A stretch of 11,000 nucleotides of DNA from Gemmatimonadales bacterium (GCA_039794085.1 JBDIWC010000089.1:1-11000); one strand, 5' to 3'; positions 1 to 10,975 are shown, counted from the stretch's first letter. Program-made: numbers and translations. Notes: generated by a model not told the origin, from the sequence alone.

Positions 1-1415
1 TGCGCCGACGGGGAGCGGAACTGGCGGAGATCACCTACCGGTATGTGAAACTCCCCCGGGAATTCCGGGGCAACCCGGAGTTCGGGGGGCGGGTGGCCTT
101 TGCCCCGGTGCCGGGGGTCGGCTGGATTGTCCGGGAGTGGTCCCTGCAGACGCCGATCTACGGGGTGCGCGCCGATGGTGGCGGCTTCAGTGGGTATTCC
201 CGGCAAATGACAGTCACCAGTGAACTGGCGGCGCGGAGACGGCTGGCGGATGAGATGTCCATCGTGGGCTGGCAGCTCGAGGGGGGCACCGGACGGGCGG
301 TGGGCGAAGGCGGGCTCCTGCTTCCGTCCGGCCCCGGCCTCCGCCCCGATGGGGTGGAGTCGGTGGCGGGCCAGCCCCGGCTCTGCCGGTCGGGCGCCGA
401 TGTGGGGAACGGCCTGGGGGCTGTCGTGGTCCGGGTGGAACGGGAGGATTCTGCCCTGGTGGCGCCGGACGTCCCGGTGGTGGTCGTGGTGGGAGACGCC
501 GAGGTTCAGTCGGTGCGGCTGGCCAATGACCGGCAGCTCAGCGTGGTTCGGCCGGCGGTGCAGGTCAAAGGAGTGAGCAGCTCGGCGGGGTTCGTGGCGG
601 TCTGCGGGGTTCCGGTCGGGGCCCGGGTCCGGGTGCATGCCGGTTCCGTGAAGGCCCCGCCGGTACATGCGGAGGTGACCGAGGCCCCGGTGCCGGTGCG
701 GGTGGCCTATCGGCCGGTGCCGGCAGCTCCTGTGGTCGAGACCCCGGCGGGGGTGCTGCAGGGGCGGGTGATCGACTCGGTGGGCACCGGGCTCCCTGAT
801 GTGCAGGTCGTCGTCGCAGGTGCCGGTCGCTTTGTGATGACGGATAGTGGAGGCCGGTATAGGGTGACCGGGGTGCCCGAAGGGCGGTTCGAGGTGATCT
901 ACCGCCGGTTCGGCTACCAGCCGGCCCACACGTTCCGGGCCTTCCGCCAGGACACGAGCCGGGTCGACATGCGGCTCCAAGCCGAGGCGTTCGTGTTGCC
1001 GGAGATCACGGCGGAAGCGAGGGAGGTGGCGCGACCGACGCCGAAAATGGCCGGGTTCCTGGATCGGCGGGCCATGGGATTCGGGTCGTTCATCGACGAG
1101 ACGATCCTCCGGGAGCGGGAGTATTCACCTCTCTCCATGGTGCTCCGCGGCCATGTGGCGGGGGTGACGCTCGTCCACCTGGCGAACAACCAGGGGTACG
1201 GCGTCATGATGTCCCGGGTTCCCAAGTGCTGGGCGCAGATCTTTTTGGATGGCATGCGCATCGTGAAGGGGGGCGAACCATACAACATCGACCAGCACAC
1301 GGTGCAGAGTCTCATGGCGGTCGAGGTGTACAAGGGGGCCGCCTCCACCCCGGTTGAGTTCGGTGGGAGCAACTCATCGTGCGGAACGGTCCTGCTCTGG
1401 ACCAGGGACCGGTAG
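1..1415 (+). CDS. 5'-truncated multidomain exported protein: end of B core + two-Cys Cna-B-like domain + CarboxypepD_reg-like domain + C-terminal TonB-receptor-type plug domain (no barrel)
   Basis: The frame is open from base 3 (RRRGAELAEITYRYVKLP...), so the GTG at 45 is not the real start. The N-terminal LAEITYRYV...GRVAFAPVPGVGWIVREW matches LREVEFEYV...GSVHFERVPGLGWIVSEW of 4693-6477. VLQGRVIDS...TDSGGRYRVTGVPEG...RRFGY is CarboxypepD_reg-like. The C-terminal IFLDG...IDQH...AVEVYKG...CGTVLLWTR is plug-like. TAG stop at 1413-1415. Confidence 0.85.
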   Translation, partial: RRRGAELAEITYRYVKLPREFRGNPEFGGRVAFAPVPGVGWIVREWSLQTPIYGVRADGGGFSGYSRQMTVTSELAARRRLADEMSIVGWQLEGGTGRAVGEGGLLLPSGPGLRPDGVESVAGQPRLCRSGADVGNGLGAVVVRVEREDSALVAPDVPVVVVVGDAEVQSVRLANDRQLSVVRPAVQVKGVSSSAGFVAVCGVPVGARVRVHAGSVKAPPVHAEVTEAPVPVRVAYRPVPAAPVVETPAGVLQGRVIDSVGTGLPDVQVVVAGAGRFVMTDSGGRYRVTGVPEGRFEVIYRRFGYQPAHTFRAFRQDTSRVDMRLQAEAFVLPEITAEAREVARPTPKMAGFLDRRAMGFGSFIDETILREREYSPLSMVLRGHVAGVTLVHLANNQGYGVMMSRVPKCWAQIFLDGMRIVKGGEPYNIDQHTVQSLMAVEVYKGAASTPVEFGGSNSSCGTVLLWTRDR

Positions 1416-1416
1416 C

Positions 1417-1441
1417 GAAGTTTGAAGTTTGAAGTTTGAAG
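1417..1441 (+). repeat. Heptamer tandem repeat (GAAGTTT)x3 + GAAG directly after a stop codon
   Basis: Read directly: TAG-C-GAAGTTT GAAGTTT GAAGTTT GAAG. Confidence 0.95.
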
Positions 1442-1449
1442 GAGGGTCC

Positions 1450-2154
1450 TTGGCCGCAATCGAAGGCGCACGGAGAGCGATCCTGGCACTGTTGGTGTCG
1501 GTCGCATCAACGGGAATTCCCGGTGCGTCCGGGACCGAGGCCATGTCATTCATCGGAGGTGTGATCCTCGACAGCATCACCTCCCGCCCGATTCCCGGCG
1601 TACTGGTGTATGTGAACGCCACCCTCAGGGACAGTTCCAACGCCGACGGGCGGTACCGGGTCAAGGGGCTCACGAGGGGGGATTATGTCCTGCGCTTCGA
1701 GATGCCCGAGGCTGCCGCGGTGATGGATGGGATTACCGTGGAAGCCACCATCGACGAAGTGGGACAGCAGTACTATCTGGATGTGCTCTGGCCTTCGATG
1801 GAACGCGTGGTTGCCGATCGGTGCGAGGAGGATCACGGGAGGCGATCGGGTCCGGTGGCACTGTTGGGGCGGGTGATGGAGGCGGGTTCAGACTCCGCCC
1901 GGGAATATGGGCGCTGGGTGGCCACGGTTACCTGGTCTGGTGGCCTGACGGGGGAGGGGACCAGTCTCGAGGGAGACCGCCAGAGGGTGGTCGTCCCGGT
2001 CCAGGAGAACGGAGGATTCCTGGTCTGCCATCTTCCCGCCGGGGTATCAGCTCGCCTGATGGTGGAAGATCCGTTGACGGGGCCCGATCGGGGCCCGCTC
2101 CCGCTGGCCCTTCCGGTGAGCGGATTCCTTGCGGTGCGCTGGCCGGGGTCGTGA
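1450..2154 (+). CDS. Exported protein: CarboxypepD_reg-like domain + two-Cys Cna-B-like domain
   Basis: TTG at 1450 follows AAGGAGG (1439-1445); the ORF-track start at 1429 lies inside the repeat. The N-terminus RRAILALLVSVAS is signal-like. IGGVILDSITSRPIPGVLV...SNADGRYRVKGL is CarboxypepD_reg-like. The C-terminal C...ALLGRV...VTW...GGFLVCHLPAG matches the tails of 4693-6477 and 7664-9145. The start is uncertain. Confidence 0.75.
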   Translation: MAAIEGARRAILALLVSVASTGIPGASGTEAMSFIGGVILDSITSRPIPGVLVYVNATLRDSSNADGRYRVKGLTRGDYVLRFEMPEAAAVMDGITVEATIDEVGQQYYLDVLWPSMERVVADRCEEDHGRRSGPVALLGRVMEAGSDSAREYGRWVATVTWSGGLTGEGTSLEGDRQRVVVPVQENGGFLVCHLPAGVSARLMVEDPLTGPDRGPLPLALPVSGFLAVRWPGS

Positions 2155-2189
2155 CGTGAGCGACCGTGACGGGTGATAGACGGCGGCCC

Positions 2190-2223
2190 TTGCGTTGGGA
2201 AGTGCGGTGGCGTATCGTAAGAT
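2190..2223 (+). promoter_or_regulatory. Candidate sigma70-type promoter(s) for the lipoprotein gene
   Basis: TTGCGT(2190-2195)-17 bp-TATCGT(2213-2218), and an overlapping TTGGGA(2195-2200)-17 bp-TAAGAT(2218-2223), upstream of SD GGAGG at 2240-2244. Motif match only. Confidence 0.4.
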
Positions 2224-2248
2224 TCCAGTCACCAACACCGGAGGAGTG

Positions 2249-3421
2249 ATGGGAAATACTCGCCTGCTGTTGCTCGCCCTCGGCCTCACCGCCTGTGGGA
2301 CGCCGTCGTCGGATCACGACGTCCGCACCGCCGATTCCGCGGGTGTCACGATCGTGACCAGCCCCGGCACCGACCGGCCCTACCCCTTCACCGCAACGCT
2401 CCAGCGCCGTCTCGGCCTCGACGACGATGGCGTCGCGGCCCTCACCAGGGCCGACCGCCGCTTCACGGGGGTGGACAGCGAGCAGCGGATCTACATCCTC
2501 AATGCCCCCCTCAACCGCGTCGAGGTGTACGACACCGCGGGCCAACGTCTCGCGCTGATCGGAGGAGAGGGGGGCGGACCGGGTGAGTTCGGCTACCCGG
2601 CGGGTCTGCAGGTGAGCCCTGATGGTCAGGTCAGTGTGGTCGACTACGGGAAGGGGGCCCTGGTCCGATTCGGCCCGGACCGGATGCCGATCGCAGAACT
2701 TCCCTATCAACAGTTCGGCTTTCCCTACAGCGGCATTCAGGTCCAGGGAGATACGGTGTACCTGGACACGAATCGTCCCCGAGAGAACTCGGCGGTGTGG
2801 GCCCTTCGGAGATTCTCGCCCCGGGATTCGGTCACGATTGCCGAACTGGTCCTTCCCTCCAGTGGCGAACTCGACTTCGGGTGTGTCAGGCTCCGGTGGC
2901 AGGCCCCGGTGCTGAGCCCCTTGCTGGTATGGAGCGCGCGGGACAGCACCTTGGCGGTGGCCGCCGAAGCCGGATATCGGGTTGATCTACGAGTGAATGA
3001 CCGGTTGGTGAAGAGTATCCGCCGGAGTGTGACGCCCGTGCCCGGAGGTGCTGTCGCCGTGCGCCGGCAGTATCCGGAGGGGCTGCGGATTGGATTCGGC
3101 CGAGGCCGGGCCGACGGGTGCCTGATTTCGGTGGAGGACCTCATCGCGAAACAGGGTGCGGCACCGTTCGTACCGGAGATTCAAGGTCTCGCCCTGGCCC
3201 CTGATGGCACGCTCTGGGTCCAGCGCTACACCTTCCCCGATGAGCCGGAACGGGTGGATGTGTTCGATCCGTCGGGGGCCTATCGTGGTACGATCACCGG
3301 TCACGGGGTACCGGCGGGGTTCCTTCCCGGGAACCGGGTGCTCTTCCCGATCAAGGACAAGGACACCGATGGCTATTCCCTCGGCCTCTACGTACTCGAA
3401 CCGGAAGAAGGGGCTTCCTGA
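2249..3421 (+). CDS. Lipoprotein, NHL-repeat-like / 6-bladed beta-propeller family
   Basis: ATG at 2249 follows GGAGG. MGNTRLLLLALGLTAC is a type II signal peptide with lipobox LTA-C (Cys codon 2294-2296). It has the NHL-like IGGEGGGPGEFGYPAGLQVSPDGQVSVVD and blade motifs LALAPDGTLWV and VDVFDPSGAYRG. Confidence 0.85.
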   Translation: MGNTRLLLLALGLTACGTPSSDHDVRTADSAGVTIVTSPGTDRPYPFTATLQRRLGLDDDGVAALTRADRRFTGVDSEQRIYILNAPLNRVEVYDTAGQRLALIGGEGGGPGEFGYPAGLQVSPDGQVSVVDYGKGALVRFGPDRMPIAELPYQQFGFPYSGIQVQGDTVYLDTNRPRENSAVWALRRFSPRDSVTIAELVLPSSGELDFGCVRLRWQAPVLSPLLVWSARDSTLAVAAEAGYRVDLRVNDRLVKSIRRSVTPVPGGAVAVRRQYPEGLRIGFGRGRADGCLISVEDLIAKQGAAPFVPEIQGLALAPDGTLWVQRYTFPDEPERVDVFDPSGAYRGTITGHGVPAGFLPGNRVLFPIKDKDTDGYSLGLYVLEPEEGAS

Positions 3422-3449
3422 AGTGGCGCACGAGGCGCTCGCCCCCGGA

Positions 3450-3478
3450 GTTCCCGGGCTGAAGCCCGGTCTCGGCGC
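3450..3478 (-). repeat. REP-like palindromic element, inverted copy
   Basis: The minus strand reads GCGCCGAGACCGGGC-TTCA-GCCCGGGAAC, closely matching GCGCCGAGCCCGGCG-TTCA-AGCCGGGGAAC at 9478-9507. Confidence 0.6.
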
Positions 3479-3617
3479 CAGAGGCGCCGGGTCCTGAAGG
3501 ACAAGGGGCCTGTTATTCCCTCTCTCCTCGAAGCACCGTGAATGCCTTGAAGGGCAGTTCCCCGGGCCCTACGCCACGGGGACCGTGGAATGAGCACCCG
3601 GCCGTGCGAACGGCCGC

Positions 3618-3797
3618 AGGGCCGAGCCCGGGGCGAAAGCCCCGGGGATTCCGCCACGGACCCGTCGGGCTCCGCGCGATGACGACTCTCGATCAGCGGC
3701 TGTGTCCCTCGCGTCCGCTGGCGCGTCTCCCACAGAAGCAGTACTCTGATGGAAGGGAGCTGCACCTACTTCGGCCTCGGATGGAGGATGGATGATG
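3618..3797 (+). promoter_or_regulatory. Conserved structured leader, copy 1 (REP-like hairpin, further stems, candidate -10 box, SD)
   Basis: Aligns with 6502-6680. Contains the perfect hairpin CCCGGGGC-GAAA-GCCCCGGG (3627-3646), conserved GTACTCTGAT (TACTCT at 3742-3747 is -10-like), and GGAGG at 3783-3787. Confidence 0.7.
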
Positions 3798-4601
3798 ACG
3801 AAGACAGCGACCGACGTTCCATGTCAAGCAGTGCGCATGTTCGGTTGCCACCTCCGGTGGATGGGCGTCGCGGCCCTGGTCACAGCCACCCCCCTGTCCG
3901 CTCAGCACGTGCTTCGCGGCTCTGCCGTTGATACGACGGGGGCTGACCTCGCGGGAGTGGAGATCGTCCTGACAGGCACTGGACGGAGTGCCACCACCGA
4001 CAGCCAGGGCCGATACACGGTCACCGGGATTCCTCCCGGCCGGTTCGAGATTCTGTTCCGCCGACTCGGATATGCACCTCTGGTCATGTACCGGAGCTTC
4101 ATGGGGGACACCGGCACGACGGTGGTGGACGTGGAACTGGTGTCCGAGGCGGTGGTGCTGCCCGAGGTGGAGACCCGGGCGCGGGGACCGGCGGAGGTGC
4201 CCCTCAAGCTGCGGGAGTGGGCCCGGCGCCGGGAATACAACGGGGCGGGGAAGTTCTGGGATGATTCGCTGCTCCGCACGAAGGAGTACCAGCGACTCCC
4301 GGAGGTACTTCAGGGCATTCCCGCGATGCGCATCATCCGGGCGAACGGAGGGCGCTATGCCGCCTCGGCGAGAGGATCAGGGGGCACAAGGCCGGCGGAT
4401 CCACGCATGCCACCCGCGTGCTATCTGCAGGTGTACCTGGACGGCGCCAGATTGTCGGGATCCTACACACCTCCCAATCTCGACGACATTCCGGTTCACC
4501 ACATCATTGCCATGGAACTCTACCGGTCCCAGGTGGAACTCCCGATAGAATTTGCCGGGCCGGGGTCGGGATGCGGAGTCCTCGCCATCTGGACGCGGTA
4601 G
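3792..4601 (+). CDS. Exported CarboxypepD_reg-like + TonB-receptor-type plug protein lacking a beta-barrel (R-P, copy 1)
   Basis: SD GGAGG followed by ATGATG (start 3792 or 3795). Signal peptide ends ...ATPLSA|Q. HVLRGSAVDT...TTDSQGRYTVTGIPPG...RRLGY is the R domain. Plug-like LPEVLQGIPAM...CYLQVYLDG...LDDIP...MELYR...CGVLAIWTR is followed by the stop. Confidence 0.88.
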   Translation: MMTKTATDVPCQAVRMFGCHLRWMGVAALVTATPLSAQHVLRGSAVDTTGADLAGVEIVLTGTGRSATTDSQGRYTVTGIPPGRFEILFRRLGYAPLVMYRSFMGDTGTTVVDVELVSEAVVLPEVETRARGPAEVPLKLREWARRREYNGAGKFWDDSLLRTKEYQRLPEVLQGIPAMRIIRANGGRYAASARGSGGTRPADPRMPPACYLQVYLDGARLSGSYTPPNLDDIPVHHIIAMELYRSQVELPIEFAGPGSGCGVLAIWTR

Positions 4602-4602
4602 G

Positions 4603-4637
4603 GAAGTTTGAAGTGTGAAGTCTGAAGTTTGAAGTGA
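4603..4637 (+). repeat. Heptamer tandem repeat (GAAGTNT-type) x5 after a stop codon
   Basis: GAAGTTT GAAGTGT GAAGTCT GAAGTTT GAAGTGA, starting 1 nt after TAG 4599-4601. Confidence 0.92.
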
Positions 4638-4692
4638 CGGGATGCTGGCAGTTCCGGTACCGTGAAGGTGCAAGTAAGGAGATGACAGGGGA

Positions 4693-6477
4693 ATGATCAC
4701 TTTGCGTCACATCGCGTGGATCTCCACGCTGGGTCTGCTGATGGCCGGCCCGGCCTCCCTGTCAGCCCAGGCCATCCGCGTCATCCTCGTCGAGGAAGGA
4801 ACAGGCAATCCGGCTGCGAGCAGTCTCGTCTCCCTGCTCTCGGAGTCGGGATCGAGACTCGTCCAGATGCTGGCCGACGAGTTCGGACGGGCCACGCTGC
4901 CCACACCGGGGCCTGGACGGTACCGGGTTCGGGGGGACCGGATCGGTTTTCTGAGCCACACGTCCGACCCGGTTACCGTCGCGTCCGGTGACACGGTCTC
5001 GCTCCGCCTCACTCTCCCGATGACGCGGTTTGTCCTGCCGGATGTAACCGTGATGGCAGAGTCCCGCTGCACGACGGCGGGAGTGGAACGACGTGACATC
5101 AGCGTGGTCTGGGAGGAGGCGCGCAAGGCTCTCACCTCCACGGTGCTGACCCGCGAACAGGTCCGGCCGGTGCTGCAGGTGACCGGTCATGAGCGGGAAT
5201 GGGATACCGAGGACCATCTCGTGCGGGAGGACACCTCCTTTGCGAAACGGGGGACCGGAGCTCCCTTCCACACTCTCCCGGATGACACCCTGCTCCTCGA
5301 AGGGTTCTCGCGCGAGGAACGCGGAACCCGGATGTTCTACGCCCCCGATGCGGGAGCTTTGCTGAGCGAGGCGTTCCTGGGGAGTCATTGCTTCACACTC
5401 GTCTCCGACAGCCGTGATGGAAGGGACCGGGTCGGACTTCGATTCGAACCAACGCCGGACCGCAGCGTACCGGACATTGCGGGCACCCTCTGGCTCGATC
5501 GGGTCGAGAATCTGTTGCGGGAAGTGGAGTTCGAGTATGTCAACGTCGAGCCCCCCTGGGATCGGCATCGAGCCCACGGATCGGTCCACTTCGAGCGAGT
5601 GCCCGGTCTCGGCTGGATCGTCAGTGAGTGGAGGGTCCGCATGCCCCGGGTGGTGGTGGAGGAGGTGCGCCCCTCACGCATGGAGACCCGGGCATCGAGC
5701 GGAGATGGCAGACGACGGGTGACCCGTGTCGAGGAGACCGACCGCGCCCCGGTAGCCCCCGACATCCGTACCCGATTCGTCCCGCGGGGGACGAGGGAAC
5801 AGAGCGGGTATGCGGTCGTGGCCGAATCCATGGCGGGGAATCAGCCCGACGGGGCGATCGGGGGGATGATCACCGGCGTCGTGTACGACTCGGTGTGTGG
5901 CTCTGGAATCTCCGGCGCCGCGGTCTCTCTTGCCGAAAGCCGCAGTGCCGCCCTGACGGATTCCACGGGTCGCTATCTCCTGTCTGTCGGAACCAGTGGC
6001 CCGGTACGCGTGAGGATCACCCATCCCGTTCTTGACCTCCTCGGGGTTCCTCCGCTGCACGAGGCCGTGGTTCCCGCCGGAGGGATCGTTCGGCTGAATG
6101 CGGCGACCCCGGGTCGGGACAGGTGGCTTCTCGATCAGTGTGGTCGCAAAACGGTGCGCAATGACCGACTCGGAGCCCTGGTGGGACGCCTTCCGGAGAC
6201 TCCGGGGGGCACCCCGAGGCGGCGCGGTGAAATCCGGGTGTCCTGGTTTGCGGGGAGCGTCACCCAGGCCGGCAGCGGCGTGGTCACTGTGGTGCGTCGA
6301 GGACACATGGATGTGACGACCGATGAGAAAGGGCGGTTCCTGGCCTGTGACGTTCCCCTTGGCGTCCCGGTGCGGATGCGGGTGAATGGGGAGACGGATT
6401 ACCAGATCGAGCCCTTGACGCCCGAGCAACGGGTCACGGTCTTTCCCGTGGCCGCAGGGGGCGACCGGTCGCGATAG
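4693..6477 (+). CDS. Exported multidomain protein: CarboxypepD_reg-like + conserved beta-rich B core + second CarboxypepD_reg-like + two-Cys domain (copy 1)
   Basis: 594-aa ORF with a signal peptide ending ...ASLSA|Q. ADEFGRATL...PGRYRVRGDRIGF is R-like. Core motifs VWEEARKAL, MFYAPDA, LLSEAFLGSHCF, IAGTLW, EVEFEYV and LGWIVSEW are shared with 7664-9145. A second R domain is ITGVVYDS...TDSTGRY. The tail is TDEKGRFLACDVPLG. Confidence 0.88.
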   Translation: MITLRHIAWISTLGLLMAGPASLSAQAIRVILVEEGTGNPAASSLVSLLSESGSRLVQMLADEFGRATLPTPGPGRYRVRGDRIGFLSHTSDPVTVASGDTVSLRLTLPMTRFVLPDVTVMAESRCTTAGVERRDISVVWEEARKALTSTVLTREQVRPVLQVTGHEREWDTEDHLVREDTSFAKRGTGAPFHTLPDDTLLLEGFSREERGTRMFYAPDAGALLSEAFLGSHCFTLVSDSRDGRDRVGLRFEPTPDRSVPDIAGTLWLDRVENLLREVEFEYVNVEPPWDRHRAHGSVHFERVPGLGWIVSEWRVRMPRVVVEEVRPSRMETRASSGDGRRRVTRVEETDRAPVAPDIRTRFVPRGTREQSGYAVVAESMAGNQPDGAIGGMITGVVYDSVCGSGISGAAVSLAESRSAALTDSTGRYLLSVGTSGPVRVRITHPVLDLLGVPPLHEAVVPAGGIVRLNAATPGRDRWLLDQCGRKTVRNDRLGALVGRLPETPGGTPRRRGEIRVSWFAGSVTQAGSGVVTVVRRGHMDVTTDEKGRFLACDVPLGVPVRMRVNGETDYQIEPLTPEQRVTVFPVAAGGDRSR

Positions 6478-6501
6478 CAGGTGGACGTGTGAAGCCGGAT
6501 G

Positions 6502-6680
6502 AGGGCCGAGCCCGGGGGAAAGCCCCGAGGTTCCGCCACGGACACCCCTCCGGGGTCCTCGCGATGACGAATCCCGAGGAACATCTGTGTTCCTCGCGTC
6601 CGCTGGTGCGTCTCCCACAAAGGCGGTACTCTGATAGAGGATGGACCTGCGCCTGGACCTCGGATGGAGGACGAATGATG
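6502..6680 (+). promoter_or_regulatory. Conserved structured leader, copy 2
   Basis: Homologous to 3618-3797. Stems are CGGGG-GAAAG-CCCCG (6513-6527), CCCC-TCC-GGGG, and a perfect CGAGGAACA-TCTG-TGTTCCTCG (6575-6596). GTACTCTGAT is conserved and GGAGG is at 6666-6670. Confidence 0.7.
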
Positions 6681-7493
6681 ACGATGACAGTCAGCCGACC
6701 AATCATGTTCAACAGCCCCTATGTTCGGTTGCCCCTTTGGTGGGCTGGTATCGCGGCCCTCGTCGCGGCCAGCCCCGTGTCCGCTCAACACGTTCTGCAG
6801 GGCCGGGTGACGGACACCACGAACGCCGGCCTGTCCGGCGTGGAGGTCGTACTGCCGGCCCTCAAACAAACCGCGACGACCGACGCCGAAGGCTACTACC
6901 GGATCGTGGGCATCCCTGGAGGCCCGCGGCGCATCGTGATGCGGAAGATCGGATTCCAACCCCTCAACTCACTGCACACCCTGATTGCCGACACGGTGGT
7001 GCTCGACGTGCGGATGGCCCCGCAGGAGGTGGTGCTTCCCACCATCGAGGTCACCGCCCGGGGGCTGGAAGCGGTGCCGGCCAAGCTCAGAGGGTGGGCG
7101 GAACGGCGGGAACGGGGCGAGGGGACCTTCTTCGACACCTCCTTCCTCCGGGAAAACGAGCACCGGGGCCTCAAGGATATCCTGCGACGGGTCACCGGAT
7201 TCCGGCTGGTGCGATTCTTCGATGGCGCCGGCTATGGCGCCGCGACCGGGACTCGGAACATCAGCTTGTCTCGGCGACCGGCCCCGATCGGGGCCCCCGA
7301 CGCCTGTTACATGTCGGTTTATCTCGACGGTGCCCTGATGTGGAGATCCGGATCCACGTCCACTCCCCCCGATCTCGACAGCTTCCCGCTCCATCAACTG
7401 GCGGCGATCGAGGTATACCGTTCCGCGTCGGAGATGCCCGCCCAGTTCAACACCGATGCCGCGTGCGGAGTCCTGTCGATGTGGACCCGATAG
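6675..7493 (+). CDS. Exported CarboxypepD_reg-like + TonB-receptor-type plug protein lacking a beta-barrel (R-P, copy 2)
   Basis: Start reassigned to ATG 6675/6678 after GGAGG, by homology with 3792. Signal peptide ends ...SPVSA|Q. Motifs: HVLQGRVTDT...TTDAEGYY...RKIGF; CYMSVYLDG...LDSFP...IEVYRS...CGVLSMWTR, then stop. Confidence 0.88.
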   Translation: MMTMTVSRPIMFNSPYVRLPLWWAGIAALVAASPVSAQHVLQGRVTDTTNAGLSGVEVVLPALKQTATTDAEGYYRIVGIPGGPRRIVMRKIGFQPLNSLHTLIADTVVLDVRMAPQEVVLPTIEVTARGLEAVPAKLRGWAERRERGEGTFFDTSFLRENEHRGLKDILRRVTGFRLVRFFDGAGYGAATGTRNISLSRRPAPIGAPDACYMSVYLDGALMWRSGSTSTPPDLDSFPLHQLAAIEVYRSASEMPAQFNTDAACGVLSMWTR

Positions 7494-7494
7494 A

Positions 7495-7532
7495 GAAGTT
7501 CGAAGTTTGAAGTTCGAAGTGTGAAGGGTGAA
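7495..7532 (+). repeat. Heptamer tandem repeat x5 after a stop codon
   Basis: GAAGTTC GAAGTTT GAAGTTC GAAGTGT GAAGGGT GAA, starting 1 nt after TAG 7491-7493. Confidence 0.92.
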
Positions 7533-7623
7533 AGCGGTCATCCCGAGCCGCGGGCGAGGGATCTGTGAACGCCGCTGGTGTACTTCCCGTCGTCCGGATT
7601 CCAGGGGTATCCTTGAATCGGAT

Positions 7624-7645
7624 TGCTCACACGAAGGCACGAAGG
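7624..7645 (+). repeat. 22-bp exact direct repeat, copy 1 (TGCTCACACGAAGGCACGAAGG)
   Basis: Identical to 9389-9410; contains tandem CACGAAGG x2. Confidence 0.9.
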
Positions 7646-7663
7646 GTGCGCAGGAAGTTTGCA

Positions 7664-9145
7664 GTGGGAAAACTGAACCCGGGAGCCCGTACGTGTGTTC
7701 CAGGTCTTGCCCTGCTCGCACTGGCGACCTGCATCGTCCCCCTCCATGGGCAGGGGATCCAGGTGACGCTGGTGGAGGAACGCTCCCGCGTGGCCGTGCC
7801 CGGTCTCGTCTCGGTTCTGTCCCTCGACGGCGCTACCGTCGCGAGGGCCCTCACCAACCCCTCGGGCTATGTGATGATCCCGGTCCCCCCGGGCCGCTAC
7901 GTGGTGGAGGGGGCCCGGATCGGCTTCTTCGGTGCCCGCTCGGACACCCTCACCGTGGTGGAAGGGAGTGCGGTCACCCTGCGCCTGGGGATGCCCATGG
8001 ACCAGGTGATGCTCCCGGAGGTGGTGACCGAGGCCCGGCGGTCCGAATGCTCGGTGCGGGACCGGAGCCCCGACCTGCAGACCGTGTGGGAGGAGGCGCG
8101 GAAGGTACTCGCCACCGTGGTGCTCACCCGGGAGCAACTCCACCCGACGCTCGAGGTGGTGCGGTTCGAGCGCACCCGCGGTCCCCTCGGGGCCCTCGTG
8201 TCGGAGCGCGAGGTGGCCCGGCGCCGGGGTTCCGGAAACCCCTACCACACCCTGACCCCTTCCGAGTTGCTCGACGGGGGCTTCTCCCGCACGACCGAGG
8301 GCCAAGTGATGTTTTACGCCCCCGACGCCGACCTCCTGCTGAGCGAGGACTTTCTCGCGACCCACTGCTTCGGGCTCAGGGCCGATGCCGCGAGAGGCCG
8401 CATTGGGCTGACCTTCACGCCGATGCCGAGCCGCCCTCAGACCGGCATCGCCGGAACCCTCTGGATGAACCGCGCCGAAGGGGAGCTGGAAGAAGTGGAG
8501 TTCGAGTACGTAAAGGCGCCGTATCCCTATAACCGCACCCGGTCCACCGGCGTGGTCCGGTTTGCCCGGATGCCTCGGCTGGGCTGGATCGTGGGGGAGT
8601 GGGAGATCCGGATGCCCAAAGTGGCCCAGGTCCGGCAACGGATCGTCGGCGCCCAGCTCGAGGAGCGGGAGGTGGTCATCGGGTCGGTGGAGGTGGGAGG
8701 AGTCGCCACGCCGGTGGATCCCGCGGAACGGCGGGTCGTGGTCGCGGCCCGGCAACGGACCGACAGTGTGGCGGGCGTATCACCCGCCGCTCCCCTTCCC
8801 GGAGGGTTCGCGTCCGCCGAGGCGCTCCTGGAGAGCTACTGCGGAGCGGCCGTCGCGGCGGATTCCAGCCGGGGAATCCTCATCGGAATGATCCGGACCG
8901 CGGACGGGGGCCCGGTGGAGGGGGCTCGGATGCGCGTGTCCTGGGGAGGGGATGCCGCCCCTCGCCCCGGGGTGTCCACCGATTCCGGCGCCGAGACGGA
9001 TGCATCGGGTGGGTTCTTCGCCTGCGGGGTACCACTGGGGGGAGTGCTCCGGGTGGACAATGGAGGCCGGCCCGTCGGGAAGCCGATCGGGACTCGTCGG
9101 GGGGAGCGGGTGATCACCCGGGAGTTCGTGGTTCCGGAGAAATGA
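7664..9145 (+). CDS. Exported multidomain protein: CarboxypepD_reg-like + conserved beta-rich B core + two-Cys domain (copy 2)
   Basis: Paralog of 4693-6477 (VWEEARKVL, MFYAPDADLLLSEDFLATHCF, IAGTLW, EVEFEYV, LGWIVGEW, TDASGGFFACGVPLG). GTG 7664, preceded by AGGA at 7652-7655, gives a normal-length signal peptide ending ...VPLHG|Q. The start is uncertain. Confidence 0.85.
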   Translation: MGKLNPGARTCVPGLALLALATCIVPLHGQGIQVTLVEERSRVAVPGLVSVLSLDGATVARALTNPSGYVMIPVPPGRYVVEGARIGFFGARSDTLTVVEGSAVTLRLGMPMDQVMLPEVVTEARRSECSVRDRSPDLQTVWEEARKVLATVVLTREQLHPTLEVVRFERTRGPLGALVSEREVARRRGSGNPYHTLTPSELLDGGFSRTTEGQVMFYAPDADLLLSEDFLATHCFGLRADAARGRIGLTFTPMPSRPQTGIAGTLWMNRAEGELEEVEFEYVKAPYPYNRTRSTGVVRFARMPRLGWIVGEWEIRMPKVAQVRQRIVGAQLEEREVVIGSVEVGGVATPVDPAERRVVVAARQRTDSVAGVSPAAPLPGGFASAEALLESYCGAAVAADSSRGILIGMIRTADGGPVEGARMRVSWGGDAAPRPGVSTDSGAETDASGGFFACGVPLGGVLRVDNGGRPVGKPIGTRRGERVITREFVVPEK

Positions 9146-9164
9146 AGTTTGAAGTTCGAAGTGG
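9144..9164 (+). repeat. Heptamer tandem repeat x3 overlapping a stop codon
   Basis: GAAGTTT GAAGTTC GAAGTGG; the TGA stop at 9143-9145 overlaps the first unit. Confidence 0.85.
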
Positions 9165-9546: not shown

Positions 9547-9589
9547 CTTCAACCTTCACACTTCAAACTTCAAACTTCCAACTTCCAAC
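9547..9589 (-). repeat. Inverted heptamer tract (AAACTTC-type on +, GAAGTTT-type on -), ~6 units, abutting a start codon
   Basis: CTTC AACCTTC ACACTTC AAACTTC AAACTTC CAACTTC CAAC, then GTG at 9590. Confidence 0.92.
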
Positions 9590-10753
9590 GTGACTCTGCA
9601 CACCGCTCACCGCACCCATCGTTTCACCGAATCGGTCATCCGCGGCATGACCCGGCTGGCCCGGGAGCATGACGCGATCAATCTGGCCCAGGGGTTCCCC
9701 GACTTTCCCTCCCCCGACGTGCTCAAGGATGCGGCGTGCGACGCCATCCGGCGTGACATCAACCAGTACGCCATCACCTGGGGTGCCACCCGTCTCCGGA
9801 ACGTCCTGGCGGCGAAATACCACGAGTGGTACGGGATGGAGGTGAACGCCGAGACCGAAATCACCGTCACCTGCGGCGCCACCGAGGCAATGGCCTCGAC
9901 CCTTCTCGCCATCGTCGACCCGGGGGACGAAGTGGTGGTGCTCGATCCGTTCTACGAGAACTACGGGCCCGATGCCGTGCTTTGCGAGGCGAAACCGGTC
10001 TTCGTCCCGATGGCTCCCGGCGAGGCCCTCGATCTGGACCGGCTCGCCGCCGCCTGTTCCGAGCGGACCCGTGCCATCATCGTCAACACCCCCAACAATC
10101 CCGCCGGCCGGGTGCTGCGTCGTGAGGAACTGGAGGGGATCGCCGAGCTCTGTCGGCGGTGGAACTGCTACGCCGTGACCGACGAGATCTACGAGCACAT
10201 CCGCTACGAGGGAATCCACATTCCGATCGCCACCCTGCCGGGGATGCGGGAGCGAACCATCACGATCAGCGGGGCCTCGAAGACCTTCAGCATCACCGGC
10301 TGGCGCGTCGGGTGGATCATCGCCCCGCCGGGAGTGACCGACGCGATCCGGAAGGTGCACGATTTCCTCACGGTGGGTTCTCCCGCGCCACTGCAGGATG
10401 CCGTCGCGGCGGCGCTGGAAACCCTCGGTCCCGACTACTATGCCGGTCTGGTCACCCAGTACCGAGCCCGCCGGGAGATCCTCCACGGCGCCCTGGTGGA
10501 CGCCGGTTTCCGCTGCGTGTCTCCCGAGGGCGCCTACTATATCATGGCCGATTTTTCGGCGCTCTCCTCCGACGACGACACGACGTTCAGTCGCTGGATG
10601 GCGCGGGAGGTGGGGGTGACGCCGGTACCGGGCTCGAGTTTCTTCAGCGATCCCGCGCTGGGGCGGTCCCTGGTGCGCTTCGCTTTCTGCAAGACGGAAA
10701 AGCTGCTCCAGGCCGCGGCGGTGAGGCTGCGGACTCTAGGGAGTAGGGAATAG
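9590..10753 (+). CDS. PLP-dependent aminotransferase class I/II (YbdL / kynurenine-glutamine transaminase / DapC-like subgroup)
   Basis: 387 aa with motifs INLAQGFPDF, TCGATEA, NTPNNPAG, DEIYE, SKTFSITGWRVG (PLP lysine) and VRFAFCK. Substrate cannot be assigned from sequence alone. Confidence 0.93.
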   Translation: MTLHTAHRTHRFTESVIRGMTRLAREHDAINLAQGFPDFPSPDVLKDAACDAIRRDINQYAITWGATRLRNVLAAKYHEWYGMEVNAETEITVTCGATEAMASTLLAIVDPGDEVVVLDPFYENYGPDAVLCEAKPVFVPMAPGEALDLDRLAAACSERTRAIIVNTPNNPAGRVLRREELEGIAELCRRWNCYAVTDEIYEHIRYEGIHIPIATLPGMRERTITISGASKTFSITGWRVGWIIAPPGVTDAIRKVHDFLTVGSPAPLQDAVAAALETLGPDYYAGLVTQYRARREILHGALVDAGFRCVSPEGAYYIMADFSALSSDDDTTFSRWMAREVGVTPVPGSSFFSDPALGRSLVRFAFCKTEKLLQAAAVRLRTLGSRE

Positions 10754-10808
10754 GGTGTTGGGTGTTGGGAACTGCGGGGGTGGGCCCAGTACCCAGTACC
10801 CAGTACCC
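10739..10808 (+). terminator. Stem-loop built from inverted heptamer tracts at the aminotransferase 3' end (possible terminator or mRNA-stabilising structure)
   Basis: GGGTGTTGGGTGTTGGG (10753-10769) can pair over 17 bp (4 G-U) with CCCAGTACCCAGTACCC in the (CCCAGTA)x3-CCC tract (10785-10808). There is no U-run, so it is not a classical intrinsic terminator. Confidence 0.4.
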
Positions 10809-10833
10809 GGAGTGTTGGGATGGTCGGCGGTAG

Positions 10834-10889
10834 GTCCTATGTCCTATGTCCTATGTCCTATGTCCTATGTCCTATGTCCTATGTCCTAT
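10834..10889. repeat. Perfect heptamer tandem repeat (GTCCTAT)x8
   Basis: Eight identical units counted directly, 56 bp. Confidence 0.97.
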
Positions 10890-10975
10890 CACTAGTGTCC
10901 GGTTAACTTGCGGAGACGGCCTTGTAAGTATGCTGTTTCCGGCAGTTTAGGCGATTTGTCGCCTGTCACCGACTT

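Follow-up and report, generated by a model that had tools for sequence, protein, structure and literature searches.

Architecture of the locus

The window analysed here is an entire contig of 11,000 nucleotides (C89) from a Gemmatimonadales genome assembly of 4.16 Mb that is 94.7% complete, and all of the features described below lie on its plus strand. Three genes, which we designate A, B, and C, have in common an Ig-like R/NTE domain, a segment resembling a TonB box, and a plug-like domain directly before the stop codon. Gene A (3..1415) is cut at its 5′ end: the reading frame is open at the contig start, and the visible 470 amino acids comprise the end of a LolA-like domain and additional Ig-like domains, an arrangement also seen in a full-length paralogue on contig C35, then the last R/NTE domain (from 750), a box-like segment (990–1019), a plug with cysteines at 1227 and 1380, and a TAG stop codon (1413–1415). 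The range given in the initial annotation begins at 750; that position is the start of the last Ig-like domain, and gene A is not a short protein but a long fusion that joins the LolA-like domain to the plug. Gene B (3792..4601, with a start at 3792 or 3795) has a signal-peptide-like N-terminus, an R/NTE domain from 3903, a box-like segment at 4152–4181, plug cysteines at 4419 and 4572, and TAG at 4599–4601. Gene C (6675..7493, with a start at 6675 or 6678) has the same layout, with the R/NTE domain from 6786, the box-like segment at 7029–7058, plug cysteines at 7305 and 7464, and TAG at 7491–7493. A start for gene C at 6489 is less likely than one at 6675/6678, which has GGAGG upstream.

Among the intervening genes, 1429..2154 encodes a small exported-looking protein with an R domain and a second Ig-like domain containing two cysteines, without a plug, and 2249..3421 encodes a six-bladed beta-propeller protein with DUF5128 and NHL matches and, by eye, a lipobox-like N-terminus. 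Two larger plug-less neighbours, 4693..6477 and 7565..9145, each carry an R domain, a box-like motif, and a LolA-like domain; in the former, which has no barrel, the LolA/RseB-like domain is accompanied by Ig-like domains, and the true start of the latter is probably downstream of 7565. The window contains no SusD partner gene.

Most of the features first noticed at this locus are borne out. The R domain of all three ORFs matches CarboxypepD_reg (PF13620) over its cut-off, with E values of 1e-11 to 6e-13; the box-like segments FVLPEITAEA, VVLPEVETRA, and VVLPTIEVTA start at 990, 4152, and 7029; and the TAG codons follow 0–2 residues after the plug domain. In a three-way alignment, both plug cysteines, as had been observed, and the terminal W-T-R are invariant. 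A scan of eight window proteins with barrel families gave no match, in keeping with the reported absence of a barrel from the window. The description of all three proteins as exported holds only in part: the signal peptides of genes B and C, identified by eye, end in Ser-Ala before Gln, whereas any export signal of gene A would lie outside the window because its ORF is open at the contig start. From these signal peptides, together with the lack of a lipobox and of a barrel, we infer Sec export and a periplasmic location.

The C-terminal domains have the profile and predicted fold of receptor plugs

TonB-dependent transporters combine a plug (PF07715) with a 22-strand C-terminal barrel (PF00593) whose last residue is aromatic, and plugs are usually treated as parts of these outer-membrane transporters. 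Because the defining barrel is absent, genes A, B, and C are not TonB-dependent transporters, although they are built from the transporter front end. Pfam Plug matches the C-terminal domains of all three at 18.5–22.7 bits, just under the cut-off of 23.9, which relatives exceed. When a profile of 70 family domains was compared with the PDB, it matched Cir (E 1e-7) and BtuB (E 4e-7), and also PirA, PfeA, and FepA. An AlphaFold2 model of the mature gene B product, made with 114 sequences (pLDDT 91.8), shows two domains joined by a flexible linker that carries the box (pLDDT 60–71 in the box itself). With Foldseek, the C-terminal domain of this model matches CirA (130 columns, rmsd 2.9), FepA, and BtuB, and the N-terminal domain matches transthyretin-like domains and SusC NTEs; in VIA comparisons, residues 109–232 align with the BT1763 plug (6z9a) with Z 9.9 and rmsd 3.3 over 106 residues, and the N-terminal domain aligns with the SusC NTE 9hfj with Z 12.1. 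By profile and model, the C-terminal domains are thus homologues of TonB-receptor plugs, as the initial annotation had supposed.

We note that a wide VIA search was dominated by matches to the Ig domain, and that the R fold is common to pilin and adhesin stalk domains. BamP of the Flavobacterium BAM complex (PMC12611786) was also considered and was ruled out by the identification of the C-terminal domain here as a plug; the literature found on BamP and DUF5686 held nothing on plugs.

Barrel-less plugs form a large family under purifying selection

The genome contains 34 barrel-less plug ORFs (22 strong and 12 weaker matches) against about 16 full-length receptors, and every one of the 34 ends within 19 amino acids of the plug; a frameshift affects one paralogue (C20), and contig ends cut a few members short. 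The same end point recurs across hundreds of homologues. The plug is complete in 44 of 47 homologues of similar size, and these 44 stop no more than 16 residues after it; the other three break off within the plug. Each of 15 longer homologues stops within 6 residues of the plug, with its extra length lying N-terminal. With a threshold of E ≤ 1e-10, an exhaustive profile search returned 7,386 clusters, a number that is a ceiling for the family because ordinary plugs may enter at weak scores; all of the best 150 of these end within 31 amino acids of the last plug. For a pooled set of 400 distinct domains of full length, the protein stops no more than 35 amino acids after the plug in 353 cases; in the remaining 47, the plug is followed by a TonB_C-like tail, by another R–box–plug unit, or, in two cases, by a tail of 150 amino acids, and in none of the 400 by a 22-strand barrel. 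The two 150-residue tails (L045 and L046) have, by eye, the alternating strands and aromatic end of a small barrel, and neither matches Pfam or the PDB. Proteins with two R–box–plug units exist, as do fusions of up to about 1,080 amino acids. All seven paralogue pairs that were compared have dN/dS of 0.09–0.24. Given the shared end point, the purifying selection, and the lack of a barrel in 400 domains, the family is almost certainly real and stand-alone, as originally proposed, and not a set of broken receptors.

On sequence matches, the family is widespread in Gemmatimonadota. Beyond the source genome, a hand count gave matches at E ≤ 1e-10 in 79 of 150 genomes from this phylum, all 79 in the class of the window's source, with 26 candidates scored per genome, an unpublished genome (G095) counted as a match, and another (G055) included in the denominator. 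A looser tally of 117/151 was set aside, its weak matches being probably ordinary plugs. A GTDB motif scan gave 80 loci, of which 79 carry titles of Gemmatimonadota lineages and one is titled "uncultured bacterium," the single motif used having come from Gemmatimonadota. Automatic annotation names the relatives plug-domain or carboxypeptidase-regulatory proteins, and the literature searched, which leaves out most subscription papers, yielded no study of a barrel-less, cysteine-paired plug family.

A conserved cysteine pair and other family-specific residues

The cysteine counts behave as a disulfide would predict. Two cysteines are present in 310 of the 400 pooled domains, four in 81, and none in nine, and the count is odd in no case; profiles made from cysteine-bearing seeds favour cysteine-bearing matches, and with a different domain envelope, 2 of 150 domains show a single cysteine. 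In the nine domains without cysteines, the two disappeared together, through one or two events within a clade fused to TonB_C. Because the cysteines are kept or lost as a pair, never odd in 400, a disulfide between the two conserved plug cysteines is likely. In gene B they precede plug strands 176–179 and 226–231. No cysteine occurs in the 140 amino acids after the box in any of 15 full receptors of the same genome. Further features that set the family apart from 18 full receptors, in none of which they were seen, are an inserted helix-strand with the pattern F/W-x-x-R-R-x-x-G-x-G-x-F before the plug and conserved Tyr, Pro, and Trp columns.

On its own, the FepA plug is reported to be unfolded and still to bind ligand weakly, and engineered intraplug disulfides are reported to prevent FepA transport (PMC11658791). 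Because of these findings, a disulfide-locked plug fits life outside a barrel well and a gating role poorly.

The TonB box and links to TonB

The box columns of the family match those of the 18 full receptors (L-x-E-V-x-V-x-A/G), and among close paralogues the box is 73% conserved, compared with 58% for the R domain. A box-like motif is also present after nearly every R domain in the genome, including those that stand in tandem or precede a LolA-like domain, and it stands behind the Ig-like domain of the plug-less neighbours at 4693..6477 and 7565..9145; because it follows nearly every R domain, the box may be a structural linker or a relic. Other observations connect the family with TonB itself. 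The genome carries tonB-exbB-exbD-exbD. All three relatives compared with Pfam TonB_C have this domain after the plug, over cut-off, and similar tails follow 37 of 89 domains in a scan whose seed, itself a plug–TonB_C fusion, inflates that share; the fusions fall inside the cysteine-paired family. In published work, TonB is bound at its C-terminal domain by an Oar fragment made up of NTE and plug (PMC6434023), BT1763 requires the box that follows its NTE (PMC7782687), and a role of the NTE in pairing with TonB is put forward as a hypothesis (10.64898/2026.09.16.752182).

Plug exchange and variable loops

Gene A and a paralogue on another contig (C30) are 87% identical up to the box and 37% identical after it, their DNA match stopping at about position 995. 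A fast tree built from 22 domains of this genome and 64 of other genomes places the gene A plug apart from the main clade of this genome, which has 14 members. Because identity drops at the box and the gene A plug lies outside the main clade, we conclude that plugs are exchanged as units. Variation within the plug peaks in the loop at 159–178, which has 36% identity compared with 74–88% in the most conserved core segments.

Neighbouring genes

A repeated cassette, not mentioned in the initial annotation, brings the plug genes together with genes for LolA-like and propeller proteins. The neighbours' LolA-like domain has 180 homologues and a predicted structure with pLDDT 87; its ten best VIA matches are all LolA/LolB/LppX-like, at middling Z scores of 5.5–8.0 and 5–15% identity, with the best alignment at Z 8.0 (rmsd 3.6–4.0 over about 150 residues) and a Foldseek E value of 2e-3. 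By features, the domain closely resembles DUF5686, with a score of 0.90. The propeller of the window (2249..3421) is one of 64 paralogues.

Within 5 kb of the 34 members, a cysteine-rich, secreted-looking mini-ORF occurs near 13 (random sites, 5%), a propeller near 15 (14%), and a LolA-like gene near 9 (2%); tandemly arrayed members do not count as independent cases, and some false positives pass the mini-ORF filter. Five of the mini-ORFs sit 4–220 bp upstream of a plug member, and the linkage recurs in a second genome (G108), while the window itself contains no mini-protein gene. At 148 loci of other genomes, only 4 matches were found, all apparently in the wrong frame, against 3 at 29 control loci (one of these, without a match, from the unpublished genome G160). 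Because the foreign loci gave only apparently spurious matches, the mini-protein cassette is shown for the genus of the window only. Complex prediction for a close gene B paralogue (C104) with its adjacent mini-protein scored 0.00 in two runs, with an uncertain fold for the partner, and speaks neither for nor against the pairing.

Searches for a partner barrel

Searches of the genome, which is 94.7% complete, with three barrel families turned up no intact barrel lacking a plug: each barrel ORF has its own plug-like N-terminus, except for a 189-amino-acid ORF that is a 94% duplicate of its neighbour's 3′ end. Among 120 immediate neighbours of relatives, with genes called by a codon model, there are six full SusC-like receptors, three SusD-like genes (two of them identified by eye), one TonB gene, and no plug-less TonB barrel; most are unrelated housekeeping genes. 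Immediately before the conserved glycine of the third strand, 15 of the 18 receptors have K/R, whereas arginine, the family's commonest residue there, is present in only 28 of 70 members.

Possible functions of the barrel-less plugs

Of the three functions suggested in the initial annotation, a soluble binding module fits best, with both ligand binding and TonB binding being putative properties. Our tentative preference, held at somewhat less than even confidence, is that genes A, B, and C encode periplasmic, TonB-engaging, variable binding modules. The disulfide, the added helix, and the aromatic residues would allow the plug to fold without a barrel; the Ig domain and box would serve as a handle for pairing with TonB through its C-terminal domain, in the manner of SusC and Oar receptors; and the variable plug loops would bind a specific partner. 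The most speculative steps are that the partners in this genus may include the cysteine-rich secreted mini-proteins encoded just upstream of several paralogues, and that a TonB pull on the box could cause a bound partner to be released or handed over. Taken to its full extent, this would amount to a barrel-less, TonB-powered periplasmic receptor repertoire, with a shared Ig–box handle, swappable disulfide-locked plugs each having its own partner (in this genus, cassette-encoded cysteine-rich mini-proteins), and TonB force used for capture, release, or hand-over; in so specific a form, we consider the proposal unlikely. Several points run counter to the TonB-engaging model: the box-like motif follows nearly every R domain of the genome, a disulfide-locked plug may resist TonB-driven unfolding, Ton-related genes are few among the 120 neighbours of relatives, and the mini-protein link is so far confined to this genus.

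Nearly as likely is a TonB-independent role, in which the plug has been co-opted as a stable binding domain on Ig-like stalks, in the periplasm or at the surface, where it would serve co-encoded proteins as receptor, chaperone, or immunity partner; the box would then be a relic or linker. Such a role would account for the box motifs that join tandem R domains or lead into LolA-like domains, and it agrees with the multi-Ig stalks and two-plug proteins, the R fold shared with pilin and adhesin stalk domains, the weak linkage to Ton genes, and the clustering with propellers and mini-proteins. It is harder to reconcile with a box that is better conserved than the R domain and matches true boxes column by column, and with the conserved TonB_C fusions.

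Those fusions would also suit TonB decoys or regulators, which would occupy TonB so as to ration energy among receptors or to block the TonB-dependent entry of bacteriocins or phages. An intact front end with a true-looking box, in proteins that outnumber full receptors about two to one, is what such a role calls for. Yet a single copy would suffice for it, whereas 34 copies with diverged loops and swapped plugs point to many specificities, and a box peptide needs no folded, selected plug; we regard decoys as a distinctly unlikely explanation.

Lower again we place the initial suggestion that the plugs are exchangeable and enter, in trans, outer-membrane barrels that have none of their own. 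The retained plug fold would permit insertion, and the small-barrel look, by eye, of the 150-residue tails in two relatives might hint at it, but the idea is weakened by the lack of an intact plug-less barrel both in the genome and among the 120 neighbours, by the tandem two-plug proteins and the longest fusions, by the infrequent third-strand basic residue, and by the block that intraplug disulfides impose on FepA transport (PMC11658791), which together make it improbable. Truncated or mis-assembled receptors, to which the sub-threshold Pfam scores, the short contig, the frameshifted C20 paralogue, and the three homologues ending inside the plug might point, are scarcely credible given the end point shared by hundreds of homologues, the purifying selection, and the conserved family-specific residues that none of the 18 receptors has.

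If the box is functional in the preferred, TonB-engaging reading, the family would constitute a large class of soluble periplasmic TonB clients in a phylum that is common yet has received little study, and automatic counts of "TonB-dependent receptors" in such genomes would be misleading; if the repertoire proposal is also true, each cell would hold dozens of soluble TonB clients, outnumbering the transporters that TonB serves. How plugs fold and bind outside a barrel is an old question that, to our knowledge, has been studied only with engineered fragments; the plug domain of neisserial TbpA, for instance, has reportedly been isolated in a laboratory study. A natural, selected family with thousands of members and a built-in cysteine pair offers soluble material for work on plug folding, ligand binding, and TonB pulling.

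Comparison with known systems

The closest counterparts of these proteins are NTE-bearing transporters, such as the SusC proteins BT1763 and BT3090 and Oar of M. xanthus. The family shares with them the order NTE, TonB box, and plug, as well as the NTE fold (Z 12.1 to 9hfj), the plug fold (Z 9.9 to 6z9a), and the box residues, but unlike them it has neither a 22-strand barrel nor a C-terminal aromatic residue, and scores against the SusC/RagA model TIGR04056 reach 13–23 bits compared with a cut-off of 368. Two conserved cysteines, the inserted helix-strand, and the Tyr, Pro, and Trp columns further separate it from the 18 full receptors. Barrel-less plugs of the ordinary type also exist (an M56 peptidase fusion on C37, and L089); unlike the family, these end in N-G-V-I/V-L-I-T and have no cysteine pair. 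The LolA-like domain of the neighbours moderately resembles LolA-, RseB-, and MucB-like periplasmic proteins in predicted fold and may form the open beta half-barrel with a helical lid that characterises them; it differs in sitting behind an R domain and box. Finally, the family shares with the laboratory-isolated FepA plug its existence outside a barrel; the FepA plug is reported to be unfolded and a weak ligand binder (PMC11658791), whereas the barrel-less state of the family is natural, selected, and predicted to be folded.

Variation among relatives of the Cys plug

In two relatives of the Cys plug (the barrel-less, TonB-receptor-like plug family with a conserved cysteine pair), the CarboxypepD_reg (R) domain, TonB-box-like segment and Cys plug are fused to a 150-aa tail (L045:3728-4948 and L046:3544-4803). 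This tail has alternating strands and a terminal Tyr, and is possibly a small outer-membrane barrel; searches of Pfam and PDB with it returned no match. Both cysteines have been lost together in the TonB_C-fused members L105-L111 and L115. Barrel-less plugs of the ordinary type occur at four further loci (L045:5147-5470, L073:4617-4919, L089:3274-3996 and, in G000, the genome containing the window, C37:8227-9450), and comprise two lone plugs (~100 aa), one R-plug protein and one fusion to an M56-peptidase-like protein.

Repeats and other genes in the window

Genes B (3792..4601) and C (6675..7493), both encoding R-box-Cys plug proteins, share a 183-bp leader with 81% identity. Short arrays of the heptamer GAAGT(T/G)(T/C) lie directly 3' of stop codons at 1417-1437, 4603-4616, 7495-7522 and 9144-9157 on the + strand and at 9558-9578 on the reverse strand, and arrays with at least three units number 121 in the genome. 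A GC-rich, REP-like palindromic element, present in dozens of genomic copies, lies at ~3590-3650 and ~6500-6545. The window also encodes a lipoprotein-like six-bladed propeller (2249-3421; 64 paralogues in the genome) and a class I/II PLP aminotransferase (9590-10753), after which short 7-bp tandem repeats are visible at ~10785-10890.

Related genes elsewhere in the genome

Among 29 filter matches in G000, ~24 are plausible secreted cysteine-rich mini-proteins, including those at C104:1184-1441, C103:1229-1480, C71:2111-2362, C30:10488-10727, C69:11140-11319 and C35:12273-12467. Many end C-terminally in L-E-P, and in a single case (C31:44973-45170) the C-terminal segment resembles the box motif. 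On C53, positions 16252-16818 hold a 189-aa duplicate, 94% identical, of the 3' end of the adjoining receptor gene. On C46 (195-8853), two genes come within 5-8 kb after a tonB-exbB-exbD-exbD cluster, one encoding a LolA-like domain and the other a propeller.
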